Below are positions 13,031 through 60,801 of a stretch of 64,000 nucleotides of DNA, in pieces (position 1 is the first letter of the stretch; the number at the start of each line of letters is the position of its first letter). The position numbers were made by a program, and so were the translations under genes. Location: NCBI GenBank assembly GCA_902794035.1, contig CADBFN010000001.1:21599-85598 (forward strand), given 5' to 3'. Below the pieces are notes generated by a model. That model had not been told where the DNA came from, did no database searches, and worked only from the letters and a program-made list of their open reading frames with translations. Source of the DNA: an uncultured bacterium (GTDB lineage: Bacteria > Cyanobacteriota > Vampirovibrionia > Gastranaerophilales > Gastranaerophilaceae).

Positions 13031-13058
13031 TGTGAACTGTGAATTGTGAGTAGTGAAT
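13031..13058 (+). repeat. 4 x tandem heptamer TGTGAAC TGTGAAT TGTGAGT AGTGAAT
   Basis: Read directly. Same nnGTGAr heptamer family as at 26.8 kb and 30.3 kb, but with no inverted partner arm here. Confidence 0.6.
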
Positions 13059-17169: not shown

Positions 17170-17385
17170 ATGCAATATAAAGAACTCGGGAAATTTATTA
17201 AAAATAAAAGATTACTGGCAGGTATAACACTAAATAAATTTGCTATTGAAAATGAGATTGAACCTGCTATATTGAGTCGCATTGAAAATTCAAAACAAGA
17301 CATAAAAGTTGGTATTTTAGTAAAAATCGCAAATGGGTTTAACACAACACCTTCAAAACTTTTATCTGAATTTGAAAAGAAATAA
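17170..17385 (+). CDS. XRE-family helix-turn-helix transcriptional regulator
   Basis: 71 aa with the typical Cro/C1 HTH (LGKFIKNKRLLAGITLNKFAIENEIEPAILSRIENSKQ). Confidence 0.8.
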   Translation: MQYKELGKFIKNKRLLAGITLNKFAIENEIEPAILSRIENSKQDIKVGILVKIANGFNTTPSKLLSEFEKK

Positions 17386-17390
17386 AAATA

Positions 17391-17465
17391 TTACCCCTCT
17401 CCTGAAAGATTTAGAAAAGGGAGCAGATATTTGAGCAAAGCGAATTACATCTGCGGGTGAGGTTT
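17391..17465 (-). repeat. GC-rich palindromic element, intergenic copy
   Basis: Its rc shares ordered blocks CCTCACCCGCA, CTGCTCCCT and GGxGAGGG with the element inside pgeF (31755-31836). Confidence 0.5.
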
Positions 17466-17527
17466 GATAAAATCTGTTATTATAACCTCTCCAACAATCT
17501 GTAATACAACAAGTTGCCAAAACAGAT

Positions 17528-17886: not shown

Positions 17887-17976
17887 ATTTCCTCCTATAA
17901 AATTCCCTGACAATTATAATCTAATTTCCAAAAAATAGCAAATAAGCTAAAACAACATTTGTCATTCTGTCTTATT

Positions 17977-18120
17977 TACCCTGGATGCGATTGTCTTGGG
18001 TCGTTCGCAGTAAACGGCATTCCGCATTTTGCTTTTAATGGCTTTCAGCCATGAGCAAAATTTGCTCCAGCCTCTGCTCACTTCCCGCTCGAACGCAATT
18101 GGCTGTTCTCTCATGCTCAC
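17977..18120 (-). pseudogene. tRNA-Arg-derived pseudo-unit 1 with 96-nt T-loop insert
   Basis: Minus strand: GTGAGCATGAGAGAACAGCCAAT-TGCGTTCGA-[96 nt GC-rich]-AATCGCATCCAGGGTA. The 39 nt at 17954-17992 are identical to 18323-18361. Confidence 0.55.
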
Positions 18121-18128
18121 AATATAAA

Positions 18129-18158
18129 TAAAAAGGACGAGATTTACCCGTCCTTTTT
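18129..18158 (-). terminator. Hairpin + T-run after pseudo-unit 2
   Basis: Minus strand AAAAAGGACG-ggtaaatct-CGTCCTTTTTATTT. Confidence 0.45.
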
Positions 18159-18161
18159 ATT

Positions 18162-18301
18162 TACCCTGGATGCGATTTATCACTTCGCTCGCCTTCGATG
18201 TGACTACGCGTCTTGCTTTTTATGGCAGGTGTGCCAAAAGCAAGACCGCTACGCACTTGGCTCGCTCGTTCCGAACGCAAAACGGCGTTCTCATCGCTAT
18301 C
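18162..18301 (-). pseudogene. tRNA-Arg-derived pseudo-unit 2 with 94-nt T-loop insert
   Basis: Minus strand: GATAGCGATGAGAACGCCGTTT-TGCGTTCGG-[94 nt GC-rich, 11-bp stem GTCTTGCTTTT/AAAAGCAAGAC]-AATCGCATCCAGGGTA. Confidence 0.55.
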
Positions 18302-18308
18302 TTATTAC

Positions 18309-18345
18309 AAATAAGACAGAATAACATTTGTCATTCTGTCTTATT

Positions 18346-18346
<1 letters not shown>
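18309..18346 (-). terminator. Hairpin directly after tRNA-Arg
   Basis: AAATAAGACAGAAT-10 nt-ATTCTGTCTTATTT (14-bp perfect arms). Confidence 0.55.
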
Positions 18347-18419
<73 letters not shown>

Positions 18420-18518: not shown

Positions 18519-18881
18519 TTATTCATCATCTTCTTTTTTGATTTGATCAACTACCATTTTAGCCATCTCTTTTGCAATTACTTTTTGAGTATCCTCCGGA
18601 CAATTTTGCAACATATTCATCGCCGTTCTTAGTGTCGTATCAATATCATACCATCTGCCTCGACGGTTGTCATCTAATCCTGAACCAACAGCGTTTATAA
18701 TATCATCAACCGCTTCAAATTTTTCATCTTCAATATTGTGTTCTATGATAATTTTAATAAGATTTAGCGCTACCCTAATCTGTGTCTGATCATCCGTTTC
18801 TTCCAAAGTTCTGACCGCTTCCGATAAAACAGGATCTTTGTCATACCAGCGTCTGTGTTGATTTGAGTATTCTTCTTTCAT
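18519..18881 (-). CDS. Small acidic protein with internal RWYDxD duplication
   Basis: Start trimmed to the ATG at 18879-18881 behind AAGGAGAA. The two halves align: RRWYDKDPVLSEAVRTLEETDDQTQ / GRWYDIDTTLRTAMNMLQNCPEDTQ. Confidence 0.6.
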   Translation of the reverse strand: MKEEYSNQHRRWYDKDPVLSEAVRTLEETDDQTQIRVALNLIKIIIEHNIEDEKFEAVDDIINAVGSGLDDNRRGRWYDIDTTLRTAMNMLQNCPEDTQKVIAKEMAKMVVDQIKKEDDE

Positions 18882-18952
18882 AATTCCATTCTCCTTTGCT
18901 TTCCTGTCATACTGAACTTGTTTCAGCATCTACTAATTTAATTAAATTGATA

Positions 18953-18977
18953 GACTCTGAAATAAATTCAGAGTGAC
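18953..18977 (-). repeat. Conserved-core hairpin, variant copy (GTCACTCTGAATTTATTTCAGAGTC)
   Basis: Immediately downstream of the fixX stop. Differs from the 37.2 kb and 60.8 kb copies by a compensatory T>C / A>G pair in the stem. Confidence 0.5.
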
Positions 18978-18978
18978 A

Positions 18979-19269: not shown

Positions 19270-20549
19270 ACAAGCCTAATCAATGCCCAAACATCTTTTA
19301 AAAGTTCACTAAACTTCCTGTCTGAAAAAATACTTTTTATAAATTTGTGGTAATTTTCTCTCTTAGGAGTGCCATCTACTGTTGTAAACATTTCAAAAAA
19401 TGAATTTATCTTTTTTAAATAGTAACTCATAAACGCTTTTTTGCGTTCATGAGCAATAGGCATAAGTTTACGATAAGTTTTTAAATCTTTCATTATAAAA
19501 GAATTTTGCAATTTCTTTTCATAATTTTTCAAAGTTTTTCTTGAAAAATCGTCTTTTTCAAAAGCTTCTATTGCAGTTTCTGCAGCAAGTTTACCTGAAA
19601 TCATTGCAAGATTTGTACCTTCCCAATGCAAGTTATTTACAAGCATCGCAGCGTCTCCGACAATCATTACGCCGTTATCACAAAGTTTTGGTACTTTATT
19701 ATAACCGCCCTCAGGAATCAGATGAGCACTATATTCTTTTAAAGTCCCGCCCTCAATCAAGGGTGCAATAGTCGGATGTTGTTTTAATTTTTCCAAAACC
19801 TCAAACGGCCTGTAGTTATTTTCCACCAAATCATCTAACGTAACACCCAATCCAATCGTGACAGAATCCACATTTGTGTACATAAAACCTAACCCGAGAA
19901 CTCCAAGCATTGAACCGCCAAAAATTTCGCCAATTACACCCTCGCCGTCTTTTACATTAAATCTTTGGTTTATCGTTTCCTTATCAAGTTTTATAACCTC
20001 TTTAACGCTCAATGCAACATCTTTTGTTTCGATCTCTTTTCTTAATTTAATTTGTTTTGCAAGAAGTGAATTGACTCCGTCTGCCAAAACAACAATATCT
20101 GCATAATAGTCTTCAAGTTCGGTTTTTACCCCGACAACTTTTGTACCGTTTTTTATTAACTCACGAACAACAGTTTGTTCAACCAAAATTACACCGGCTT
20201 CTTTTGCTTTTTGAGCCATCCACCTGTCAAACTTTCCTCGTATCACAGAATAACTTTCATTCCCGTCTTTACGATAAGAAATTGATGTTGAATCTTCTTC
20301 GCCCAAAATCATAAAATTATGAGTAATATTTCTTCTTTCTAAAGGTGCTTCCTGCTCAAAATTCGGGAAAATTTCTTTTGTCGGTCTTGTATAAATTGCC
20401 CCGCCAAAAACATTTTTACTGCCAGCAAATAAACCACGTTCAATTAAAACAACTTCTTTACCTGCTCTTGCAAGAGTAATAGCACAAGCAATACCTGCAG
20501 GGCCTGCACCAACAATAATGACATCTGTTTTATTGCTCTTACTTAACAT
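19251..20549 (-). CDS. fixC: FAD-dependent oxidoreductase FixC (ETF-quinone oxidoreductase-like)
   Basis: Start trimmed to the ATG at 20547-20549 behind AAGGAG. Dinucleotide fold DVIIVGAGPAGIACA. FixC-like throughout. Confidence 0.85.
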   Translation of the reverse strand: MLSKSNKTDVIIVGAGPAGIACAITLARAGKEVVLIERGLFAGSKNVFGGAIYTRPTKEIFPNFEQEAPLERRNITHNFMILGEEDSTSISYRKDGNESYSVIRGKFDRWMAQKAKEAGVILVEQTVVRELIKNGTKVVGVKTELEDYYADIVVLADGVNSLLAKQIKLRKEIETKDVALSVKEVIKLDKETINQRFNVKDGEGVIGEIFGGSMLGVLGLGFMYTNVDSVTIGLGVTLDDLVENNYRPFEVLEKLKQHPTIAPLIEGGTLKEYSAHLIPEGGYNKVPKLCDNGVMIVGDAAMLVNNLHWEGTNLAMISGKLAAETAIEAFEKDDFSRKTLKNYEKKLQNSFIMKDLKTYRKLMPIAHERKKAFMSYYLKKINSFFEMFTTVDGTPKRENYHKFIKSIFSDRKFSELLKDVWALIRLVWSILI

Positions 20550-26798: not shown

Positions 26799-26885
26799 CT
26801 AGTGAATAGTGAGTTGTGAGCAGTGAGAAGTTCTTTTATACTTATTTGAAATGAACCATTCACCATTCACTATTCACTTCTCACT
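26799..26885. repeat. Inverted arrays of 4 + 4 heptamers (AGTGAAT AGTGAGT TGTGAGC AGTGAGA ... CCATTCA CCATTCA CTATTCA CTTCTCA)
   Basis: Read directly in the rpoB-rpoC1 spacer. The arms can form a long imperfect hairpin. Confidence 0.65.
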
Positions 26886-30282: not shown

Positions 30283-30413
30283 TGTAAAGGTGAATCGTGA
30301 AATGTGAATTGTGAGTTGTCCGTATAATTTTTATATCAACCGTGAATATGAACTGATATCATAAATCATTAAAGGTCTATTCACTATTCACGAATTTCTA
30401 TTCACGCCTTTAG
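30283..30413. repeat. Inverted heptamer arrays upstream of rpoB
   Basis: AGGTGAA TCGTGAA ATGTGAA TTGTGAG ... CTATTCA CTATTCA CGAATTT CTATTCA, closed by TAAAGG/CCTTTA. Confidence 0.6.
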
Positions 30414-31231: not shown

Positions 31232-32008
31232 ATGTTTTATTTTGATGAAATTAACGGTAAAAAAATTTTAAAATCGGATTTGATAAAAAATGCAAATGCC
31301 TTTTTTACAACAAGAGAAATTTGTATCTGTGATAAGGGAAGAAATAATAATTCAGAAGTAAAAGATAATTTGAAAATTATCGAGAATTATCTGGGGAAAA
31401 ATCTAATTTCTCCAACTCAGACTCATAGCGCAAATGTAGATATAGCAATAGAAAACAAATTTGAATACCCTGATACTGACGGATTAATTTTGACAAAAAA
31501 TAACTTTGCAATTTTTTTAAATTTTGCCGATTGTACCCCATTAATTTTTTATGATGAAAAACAAAATATCGGTGCTGTTTCTCATGCCGGCTGGAGAGGA
31601 ACAGCACAAAAAATTGCACAAATTACCGCAGAAAAATTAATAAATGAATTTGATTCAAAACCTCAAGACATTTGCGTTTTAATAGGTCCTGCAATTTGCG
31701 GAAAATGTTATGAAGTTGGAGAAGAAGTGTATTCGCAATTTTTTCCATCTCTTATTCCCTCACCCGCATCCGCAAGGTTCAATACTTCACCTGCGGCTGC
31801 TCCCTCTCCCACCAAAAAATATTGTGGGCGAGGGAATACATATCACATTGACCTCAAAGAAATTAATAGAAAACAGTTAGCCGACATCGGGATAGAAAAA
31901 ATTGACGTTTGCCCGTATTGTACATGTTGTGACAATGAATATTTTTATTCATACCGGAAAGAAAATGGTACAACTTATCGCCACAGTGCCATTTTAAAAC
32001 TAAAATAA
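31232..32008 (+). CDS. pgeF: YfiH/PgeF-family (laccase-domain) protein carrying an in-frame repeat insertion
   Basis: 258 aa with HSANV, ADCTPL, HAGWRGT, CGKCYEVG and YFYSYRKE motifs. Confidence 0.85.
   Translation: MFYFDEINGKKILKSDLIKNANAFFTTREICICDKGRNNNSEVKDNLKIIENYLGKNLISPTQTHSANVDIAIENKFEYPDTDGLILTKNNFAIFLNFADCTPLIFYDEKQNIGAVSHAGWRGTAQKIAQITAEKLINEFDSKPQDICVLIGPAICGKCYEVGEEVYSQFFPSLIPSPASARFNTSPAAAPSPTKKYCGRGNTYHIDLKEINRKQLADIGIEKIDVCPYCTCCDNEYFYSYRKENGTTYRHSAILKLK
31755..31836 (+). mobile_element. GC-rich ~82-bp palindromic element inserted in frame in pgeF
   Basis: Imperfect terminal inverted repeats TTCCCTCACCCGC / GTGGGCGAGGGAA. Sharp local GC rise. Related copy at 17391-17465. Confidence 0.55.
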
Positions 32009-36468: not shown

Positions 36469-37101
36469 TTAATATCCGTTTTGGATCCATTCACGCACTC
36501 TGAATTTTGCACCCAAATCTGTAGCAATTTGTTCGCATTTATTTAGGTTAAGATGTCTGCCTTTGTATCCTTCAACAACACTTGCGACAGTTTCGAAACC
36601 ATTGTCAGCACAGGATTTTATAAACTTTTTAACCTCATCATAAGCACCCTCAAAAACAGGCTGAGATAATTCGTCATATTCTTTTGAAGATTCACCGTTC
36701 AGACTGACGGAAATTGTATCTATCAGACCTTTTAATTCCGGCACAATATCTCTTTTATAAACATAATTAGCATGACCGTTTGTATTAATTCTGATTTTTG
36801 TCTGAGGGTATTTTTCTTTGATATACTTTGCAACCCCTTTCAGAACATCAAGTTTTAATAACGGTTCACCGTACCCGCAAAAAATGACTTCACTGTTGTC
36901 ATTGTCAGGCTTTTGCAGAAGTATTTTTTCATATTGTTCAACGACATCATTTACTCCGGAGTTTTCATCATCAAGCCAAAGTGTCTGACCTTTTACATCA
37001 TCTTTATCTTTGCGCAGACAAAAAATACAGTCATTTGTGCATTTGTTTGTAAGATTTATATAAATTTTTCCGTCTAATTCATAAACTAATACATTTGCCA
37101 T
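36469..37101 (-). CDS. Small radical SAM protein
   Basis: 210 aa with CTNDCIFC (CxxxCxxC) near the N-terminus and a GYGEPLL glycine-rich SAM motif. Confidence 0.85.
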   Translation of the reverse strand: MANVLVYELDGKIYINLTNKCTNDCIFCLRKDKDDVKGQTLWLDDENSGVNDVVEQYEKILLQKPDNDNSEVIFCGYGEPLLKLDVLKGVAKYIKEKYPQTKIRINTNGHANYVYKRDIVPELKGLIDTISVSLNGESSKEYDELSQPVFEGAYDEVKKFIKSCADNGFETVASVVEGYKGRHLNLNKCEQIATDLGAKFRVREWIQNGY

Positions 37102-37187: not shown

Positions 37188-37475
37188 CCGACCTATTCAC
37201 TTACAAATTAGGCGGTTATTCAAAAAATGAGGCTTTTGTCATTCTGAATTTATTTCAGAATCTTAAAATTCTCATTTTTATATTCTTTGTTGGGTTTCAC
37301 CCAACCTACAAGCTATATAGAATGTAGTGTGGGCAAAATGTAATGTGCCCACAAAGATAATAAAGATGGGCACGCTTTCGCTTTGCCCATCCTACAAATC
37401 TTATTTTCGTGGTAACTCCTATAATAGTTATGTAAGGGACGTTTATACGCACCAAAAACCCGACCTATTCACTTA
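37188..37475. repeat. Composite repeat cluster bounded by 16-nt direct repeats
   Basis: CCGACCTATTCACTTA at 37188-37203 and 37460-37475. Between them are the conserved-core hairpin (37234-37271) and three REP hairpins (37287-37310, 37323-37353 inverted, 37365-37396). Confidence 0.6.
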
Positions 37476-60752: not shown

Positions 60753-60801
60753 GCGGGAATTTTGTCATTCTGAATTTATTTCAGAATCTTAAAATTCCCG
60801 C
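60753..60801. repeat. Conserved-core hairpin with outer stem GCGGGAATTTT/AAAATTCCCGC
   Basis: The 38-nt core TTTTGTCATTCTGAATTTATTTCAGAATCTTAAAATTC is identical to 37234-37271. Lies downstream of fabI. Confidence 0.6.

Follow-up and report, generated by a model that had tools for sequence, protein, structure and literature searches.

An in-frame palindromic repeat in the pgeF/yfiH gene of an uncultured Gastranaerophilales bacterium, and the dispersed repeat family to which it probably belongs

The pgeF/yfiH gene of an uncultured rumen member of the Gastranaerophilales (contig CADBFN010000001.1, assembly GCA_902794035.1) contains, in frame, a GC-rich stretch of 82 nt. It is very probably one member of a family of palindromic repeats, non-coding and non-autonomous, that has spread across AT-rich Gastranaerophilales genomes of the gut and rumen. 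The window that we analyzed is the 64,000-nucleotide stretch of this contig that surrounds the gene; its GC content is about 33%. [quoted passage not shown] An earlier reading of the window from its letters alone (hereafter the sequence-only reading) had proposed a palindromic element at this position, and a dispersed family is what we found. Its members were compared with a covariance model, R1, built from an alignment (A4) of 52 distinct copies found elsewhere.

The 82-nt copy in pgeF

The host gene, the copy and the parts of the copy are as follows (all on the plus strand).

31232-32008, plus strand: host gene pgeF/yfiH, an open reading frame (ORF) of 258 aa, identified by Pfam and PDB matches and an AlphaFold2 model
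31755-31836, plus strand: copy of the dispersed repeat, in frame over codons 175-202; R1 76.7 bits over 31753-31840
31757-31765, plus strand: block A, the 5' conserved block CCCTCACCC, from alignment A4
31766-31800, plus strand: hairpin P2 (GCATCCGCAAGG...CCTGCGGCTGC), from the fold and from covariation in 52 copies
31801-31835, plus strand: hairpin P3 (TCCCTCTCCCAC, loop, GTGGGCGAGGGA), from the fold and from subfamily members elsewhere

The copy reads TTCCCTCACCCGCATCCGCAAGGTTCAATACTTCACCTGCGGCTGCTCCCTCTCCCACCAAAAAATATTGTGGGCGAGGGAA, has the ends TTCCCTCACCCGC...GTGGGCGAGGGAA, and codes for residues I175-N202 (IPSPASARFNTSPAAAPSPTKKYCGRGN) with the frame kept and no stop codons. The sequence-only reading was right about its composition and place: its GC content is 0.52 against about 0.33 for the window, in an otherwise AT-rich gene. 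Because the window holds 57 GC-rich 30-mer islands of like kind, GC-richness was nevertheless dropped as a criterion. Folded as single-stranded DNA, the copy reaches -17.6 kcal/mol, compared with -7.0 +/- 1.95 for shuffled sequences (z -5.4), and its minimum-energy fold consists of two neighboring hairpins, P2 and P3. What had been taken for imperfect terminal inverted repeats is instead a modular arrangement of block A, P2 and P3, to which some copies add a fourth block. The 3' arm GTGGGCGAGGGA can pair with either the 5' block or the internal CTCCCTCTCCCAC, the internal pairing being the one conserved in the family; the fourth block, GGGTGAGGG, which is the partner of A in "full" copies, is absent here. 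Four of the six reading frames of this copy are free of stop codons, and most family copies are open in two or three. An extended CCCAC/GTGGG stem and a loop of 9-12 nt mark the subfamily of the window copy, which is also represented in loci L085, L096, L104, L116, L118 and L143. An assembly artefact was rejected because the same insert occurs in independent assemblies (P0001, with 9 sequences on 4 contigs; L005; L140; and L003/L004).

A dispersed, modular family

A scan of a metagenome collection for the exact pattern CCCTCACCCGCAT-N20-34-CTGCTCCCTC retrieved 87 stretches, all but four or five of them in rumen or gut contigs of 30-46% GC, and these are alike well beyond the search pattern. 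Copies measure 55-135 nt, occur in both orientations, both between and inside genes, and are present two or three to a contig in several cases (three in OIYO01000515.1). When about 1.4 Mb of related loci was searched with the element by BLAST, paralogous copies turned up in L007, L006 and L005, as well as at a second variable site of pgeF in L009 (hot spot 1, below). R1 gave 25 matches in 1.09 Mb of Gastranaerophilales pgeF neighborhoods and none in 272 kb of pgeF neighborhoods from other phyla. With Rfam, no family reached its gathering threshold in the window; permissive thresholds returned sub-threshold matches to generic hairpins on the element and on one "full" copy.

The family consensus is (A/C)CCCTCACCC - GCATT(T/C)GTAnGGCTC..loop..GCCnAC(A/G)ACTGC - TCCCTCTCCC - loop - GGG(C/A)GAGGG, with an optional 3' end, TTG-GGGTGAGGGG, that pairs with the first block. 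The modules are thus block A (CCCTCACCC), hairpin P2, hairpin P3 (CCCTCTCCC, loop, GGGnGAGGG) and, sometimes, the fourth block GGGTGAGGG pairing with A. Paired ends of the form A(CCCTCACCC)...(GGGTGAGGG)T are confined to "full" copies; most copies, including that in the window, end in the P3 hairpin. In 45 of 56 copies block A is preceded by the base A, and the sequence on either flank is A-rich.

The pairing of P2 is conserved through compensatory change. Across the 52 copies of A4, 93.9% of P2 cells are paired, both sides have changed in 7 of the 11 pairs, and the covariation score is 0.472, as against at most 0.078 when the partners are slid by 1-3 columns. Because the fixed search pattern covers the three outer pairs, these are uninformative, while the interior of P2 was unconstrained by it. 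At least five variants of the lower stem occur (TTTGTA/TACAA, TTCGTA/TACGA, TTTCTA/AGAA, TTTGCA/TGCAA and TCCGCA/TGCGG). G-T and A-C intermediates are equally rare, so there is no pointer to one transcribed strand. Since compensatory changes keep the pairing, single-strand folding matters for the persistence or the spread of the family.

A third repeat of about 54-57 nt, GATACAAAGCGAA.CA.CG.AAC....TGAG...G..TGAGCCTGTATGCCGTATGGCTGA, is nested exactly in the P3 loop of some family members (L009:10175-10235 and L005:15590-15650; also L092, L131, L144 and L153). At two orthologous sites both filled (128-133 nt) and unfilled (74-76 nt) versions are present.

A second, decaying copy in the window

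The window has one other clear match to R1.

17383-17467, minus strand: degenerate intergenic family copy, 6 nt past the stop codon of a small helix-turn-helix gene; R1 33.8 bits, E 3.1e-6

This copy takes in the oppositely oriented relative that had been proposed at 17391-17465. The argument then made from shared blocks also holds: within the window, CCTCACCCGCA and CTGCTCCCT have two occurrences apiece, at 31758/31797 (plus) and 17462/17426 (minus) only, where 0.01 and 0.08 occurrences are expected by chance, and their spacings at the two loci are 28 and 25 nt. The alignment statistics by which the likeness was to be judged gave a divided answer. Scored plainly, a local alignment of the two copies falls short of significance, since its score is dominated by AT-rich loops, and composition-aware alignment is marginal (29.7 bits, where the null gives 24.9 +/- 2.1 and 2 of 150 shuffles score as high), whereas the family covariance model recognizes the intergenic copy. 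The latter folds no better than shuffled sequences (z +0.56). It is kept in close relatives, and in L178 the consensus CTGCTCCCTCTCC survives at the place of the window's CTGCTCCCTTTTC; the window copy is thus a decaying member of the family. A separate canonical terminator-like hairpin follows it. At 20137-20175 there is also a weak, P2-only match to R1 (17.8 bits, E 0.019), which may be a relic hairpin or a chance resemblance.

The insert in the predicted PgeF protein

The 258-aa product matches PF02578 (Cu-oxidase_4/DUF152) with an E value of 3.6e-54 and 184.1 bits, the curated cutoff being 22.9 bits, and its closest solved structures are YfiH/YlmD proteins; the neighboring split rpoC1/rpoC2 genes help to place the window in Candidatus Gastranaerophilales (Melainabacteria). 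The catalytic triad His65/Cys101/His118 is intact and is invariant across the 41 homologs aligned. An AlphaFold2 model built with this 41-sequence alignment has a mean predicted local distance difference test score (pLDDT) of 84 and a predicted template modeling score of 0.84, and Foldseek aligns it to YfiH/YlmD/PgeF crystal structures (6dzd, 6t0y, 7fbg, 7f3v) with TM scores of 0.71-0.79. When the insert is mapped onto this model (the sequence-only reading had suggested a solved YfiH structure), it coincides with the sole segment of the model with a pLDDT below 50, residues 176-201. The element-coded peptide is rich in Pro, Ser, Ala and Gly and sits between helix 164-170 and helix 208-218. We infer that PgeF with its insert would be functional and that the insert is probably a disordered loop and a neutral passenger.

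Length variation and allele exchange at pgeF

Close homologs of PgeF (120 sequences) range from 229 to 305 aa, and their alignment contains two hypervariable sites, hot spot 1 after ICICDK and hot spot 2 between CYEVGEEVY and DLKEIN. The 82-nt copy occupies hot spot 2. Outside the clade the native loop at this position is shorter, both in the alignment and in solved structures, as had been anticipated; the extra length is less than the 27 or so residues then estimated, namely 19 residues relative to the closest relative (P0005/L001), about 13 when Gastranaerophilales proteins with a native loop are the reference, and 12-13 relative to the solved Bacillus and Geobacillus YfiH/YlmD structures. 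The native loop, TV.DFEGLY.I..GKI.VDLK, is found in more distant Gastranaerophilales proteins (57-63% identity), and closer relatives carry assorted Pro/Gly-rich segments encoded by GC-rich DNA. More distant Gastranaerophilales have segments of the same A-hairpin-B-B' plan with different hairpin sequences.

We searched close relatives for an empty site. The DNA of the nearest relative, P0005/L001, reads CCCCTCACCC-CTGC-CCCCTCTCCCC-AAAG-GGGCGAGGGAA at hot spot 2: it is a form of the repeat that is 57 nt shorter, lacks P2 and has a reduced P3 loop, with block A, P3 and both ends present. No clean empty site is therefore at hand nearby. R1 identified P2-less short forms at hot spot 2 in L001, L009, L010, L006 and L008. 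The pgeF copy is common to orthologs down to 80% protein identity; at that distance, P0006 has a diverged long form with 86% nucleotide identity, so the pgeF insert is old.

The distribution of long forms (with P2) and short forms (without P2) does not follow the genes that carry them. L001 and the window share 99% identity upstream and 95% downstream, yet across the tract 31698-31877 only 82.1% of alignable bases agree, the figure elsewhere in the gene being 95.1% (p 5e-6). Conversely, in the same tract the window is 97.8% identical to L005, a different lineage whose flanks are 40-73% identical to the window, and the rest of the gene is 85.6% identical (p 9e-7). Between L001 and L009, too, the short forms show 95.9% identity, as against 84.8% for the rest of the gene, and the hot-spot states are mosaic and scattered on a backbone tree from which both hot spots were masked. 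From this discordance of the tract and scatter of states, we conclude that the long and short forms are old alleles, shared by two or more species-level lineages and swapped between them by homologous recombination of a tract of about 180 nt. Given such exchange, the difference between the window and its nearest relative is an allele replacement and not a fresh insertion. Both copies in the window, that in pgeF and the intergenic one, are old and fixed.

Hot spot 1 is unoccupied in the window and filled in many relatives.

31337-31354, plus strand: pgeF hot spot 1 (after ICICDK), empty in the window, from the protein alignment

Relatives P0002-P0004, P0020, P0026-P0033, P0039, P0044 and P0056 have 10-47 extra residues here, of at least three repeat types. 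The main family is represented at this site in L009 (10116-10253) and L161; L005/L010 and L009 have flanks that are 98% identical and inserts that differ. Counting both hot spots, pgeF has at least six allelic states.

In relatives, hot spot 1 also holds in-frame copies of a second dispersed palindromic repeat, TGTCATTCTGAA...TTCAGAATGACA (peptides ..EILKQVQDD..VQNDK.. and CHSELDSES..NKFGMT). The window has this repeat at 18902-18978, 37234-37271 and 60760-60797, and the ORF at 18519-18929 starts within a copy of it (MLKQVQYD...).

In-frame copies in other genes

Of 79 non-redundant family copies, 17 have at least 40 open codons on both sides. Hosts identified by Pfam include Mfd, PriA, an NFACT/RqcH-like protein, a PD-(D/E)XK nuclease, a PflA-like radical S-adenosylmethionine (radical-SAM) protein with two tandem copies, and another radical-SAM protein, bearing out the earlier analogy with the palindromic elements of Rickettsia. 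One of these insertion sites can be followed into the window.

36892-36962, minus strand: unoccupied radical-SAM site within ORF 36469-37101, from flank mapping, site alignment and translations

The site is filled in frame in L006:16720-16807 (R1 81.4 bits) and L005:15539-15626 (59.1 bits) and is empty in the window, L001, L009, L010, L003 and others, with flanks that are 82-93% identical. It is a gain of a family copy at a new site. The suggestion that the element is active or recently active accordingly stands for the family only, which varies in presence and absence at other sites among close relatives, and not for the two window copies.

Several further in-frame arrangements were observed. 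The PflA-like gene with two tandem copies is L096:960-1140. In L091 (1227-5111), a helicase/nuclease ORF of 1295 aa contains one family copy and two copies of another repeat peptide (PPIACGDFPLKGGRN..CDKLCPLQ.GNALQGQRG), between which there is what looks like an embedded small endonuclease-like domain. In L111, L117 and L154, several diverged paralogs with the prepilin-type N-terminus FTLAEVLITLGIIGV have a copy about 20-40 codons upstream of it, read through in the open frame; the position may be favored, or the gene family may simply be so abundant that the two coincide.

Origin and spread of the family

We propose that copies would be made by a structure-recognizing enzyme acting in trans. 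Insertions would land randomly in AT-rich DNA, and survival in housekeeping genes would be limited to those that leave the frame intact in a surface loop that tolerates them. Because the family depends on hairpins and shows no target-site duplications, an HUH/Y1-type transposase (a RAYT or the TnpA of IS200/IS605) is put forward as the likeliest driver, tentatively and with less than even confidence.

Several observations weigh against a mobile repeat of this kind or limit what its alignment can tell. Among 56 copies, flank matches (k = 2, 3 and 4) do not exceed those of shuffled pairs, as judged with element boundaries that are uncertain. Near copies in about 2.2 Mb of DNA, we found no transposase-like cluster, no parent insertion sequence (IS) and no long ORF bracketed by the family ends. 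At the radical-SAM site, 33 residues replace about 14 native ones, so that part of the native sequence was lost or overwritten, an outcome that clean cut-and-paste does not predict; in pgeF, too, the repeat may replace some native residues instead of purely adding to them. No truly empty hot spot 2 was found among close relatives, and the native loop is restricted to distant ones. Finally, orthologous sites from different samples are among the 52 aligned copies, so that cell counts overstate the number of independent events, and covariation alone cannot separate constraint on DNA from constraint on RNA.

As to an autonomous partner, the 449 ORFs within 1.5 kb of copies cluster into pilin-like paralogs and orthologous neighbors, with no transposase-like cluster, and where family ends bracket 0.5-3 kb they enclose ordinary genes only. 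An ORF between two copies in L100 was considered for this role and rejected, as its region is phage-like and it does not encode a transposase.

The 82 nt might alternatively be a native, lineage-specific extension of the PgeF loop under protein selection, with a merely fortuitous likeness to 17391-17465. In its favor, the window has many GC-rich islands, the two window copies do not align significantly by plain scoring, and the GC-rich loops of some relatives match the native loop in length (for example, NPLPHSLPAGEG versus ENFEGLYEIREG). This explanation is almost certainly wrong: the same nucleotide family occurs at more than 80 unrelated loci, in both orientations, in several frames and between genes, the element-coded residues are predicted to be disordered, and the dispersed metagenome copies together with the R1 score of the intergenic copy (E 3e-6) already refute it. 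A motif kept by the host for its function is harder to dismiss, whether a structured RNA, such as a transcript-stabilizing or terminator-like hairpin, or a protein-binding site in DNA for a nucleoid protein or regulator, with coding copies being incidental. The compensatory changes in P2 would be expected of it, many copies lie just upstream or downstream of genes (several of them pilin-like genes with the copy upstream), and the intergenic window copy lies 6 nt after a stop codon. That copy, however, persists though its fold is lost and has a separate canonical terminator-like hairpin after it. Copies also point both ways relative to the host gene and lie inside at least eight unrelated housekeeping ORFs, no Rfam family matches, and wobble intermediates are as rare as A-C ones, with no sign of strand asymmetry; we consider a functional motif unlikely.

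A third alternative accepts the mobile repeat and differs in timing, placing a fresh transposition into an empty pgeF loop in the lineage of the window. It would account for the 19 codons by which L001, with flanks 99% identical, is shorter here. Against it, L001 already has block A, P3 and both repeat ends, a 98% identical long form is present in L005, another lineage with flanks of 40-73% identity, the surrounding tract disagrees with the remainder of the gene, and P0006, at 80% protein identity, has a diverged long form; a recent insertion is therefore very unlikely. The reading that we prefer remains that of a non-coding, non-autonomous repeat family, of which the pgeF copy is an old member. 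A bolder version of it, which we think rather doubtful, would have the family be still-active, structure-dependent mobile DNA of an undescribed type, three-helix and modular, without target duplication, recurrently colonizing the same loops, and with cassettes recombining between co-resident Melainabacteria. If true, such elements would be a general engine of protein-length polymorphism in a gut phylum, beyond isolated passengers.

Other repeats in the window

Two further repeats were noted. A short direct repeat, GTGAA.TGTGAATTGTGAG..GT (D9), occurs three times, at 13032-13054, 26802-26824 and 30297-30319. On the minus strand, tRNA-Arg(TCT) at 18346-18419 is the sole Rfam match in 17939-18419; its last ~16 nt (AATCGCATCCAGGGTA), with an A-rich stretch and a hairpin, are repeated downstream at 18124-18177 and 17939-17992 (a spacing of about 185 nt). 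Two GC-rich non-tRNA segments of about 120 nt lie between these 3'-end repeats, and the region 17939-18419 (minus) looks like a tandem array of short units, each closed by the tRNA 3' end, either att-like or composed of tRNA-linked small RNAs.

Significance and comparison with known systems

Selfish DNA inside protein-coding genes is best known in Rickettsia, and the present family extends it to the gut-dwelling, non-photosynthetic sister group of Cyanobacteria. The consensus and covariance model can be used to mask or map these repeats in metagenome-assembled genomes of Gastranaerophilales, where, unmasked, they give rise to length-variable "alleles", spurious ORFs (NPHPH.., PLPxGEG and MLKQVQ.D starts) and probably assembly breaks. 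The compensating hairpin and the absent target duplications offer a handle for finding the mobilizing enzyme, and the recombining cassettes of pgeF illustrate how inserts of this kind are kept as trans-lineage polymorphisms.

Rickettsia palindromic elements (RPEs) are frequently inserted in frame in housekeeping genes, with a peptide that appears compatible with the host fold (PMC10969869). Like RPEs, the family consists of short palindromic repeats dispersed in an AT-rich genome, often in frame in unrelated housekeeping genes, and its added peptide seems compatible with the fold of the host protein. It differs in being shorter (~55-90 nt, compared with ~100-150 bp) and strongly GC-rich, in its modularity, with P2 and the fourth block both optional and another repeat nesting in the P3 loop, and in its host, a member of the Melainabacteria. 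Because the host phylum differs, we do not claim membership among RPEs; the likeness is one of behavior.

Bacterial MITEs, such as QMITE1 of Coxiella and Nezha and other cyanobacterial MITEs, include some in-frame fusions with host ORFs (PMC10969869; PMC5896051). The family is similarly short (within about 50-500 nt), non-coding and multi-copy, and it shares with MITEs a length of 50-200 nt, size variants and truncated forms. Unlike MITEs, with their terminal inverted repeats, target-site duplications and descent from an IS, it has paired ends (A/A') only in "full" copies, shows no target duplication in 56 copies, and has no parent IS that we could find near copies. Another lead comes from the sister lineage of Melainabacteria: Elhai and colleagues, in 2008, reportedly described cyanobacterial small dispersed repeats (SDRs) of ~21-27 nt that form hairpins. 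By that description, SDRs would resemble the family as very small hairpin repeats within conserved genes that nest in one another and in larger repeats.

[quoted passage not shown] They and REPINs are described as many scattered GC-rich hairpins in single and compound forms (PMC3116915, PMC3337134), and REPs are defined by a GTAG or CGTC head and an extragenic position (PMC3733652). The family resembles these RAYT-mobilized repeats in its GC-rich, multi-copy hairpins, its conserved stem pairing, its lack of evident target-site duplication and its single and compound forms. It departs from REPs in having no conserved GTAG/CGTC head (columns 23-26 of A4 are GTA plus a variable base, inside the stem) and in having about one-fifth of its copies inside ORFs. 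By analogy with these systems, it may be described as a new repeat family that behaves functionally like RPEs and structurally resembles REP/REPIN hairpins.

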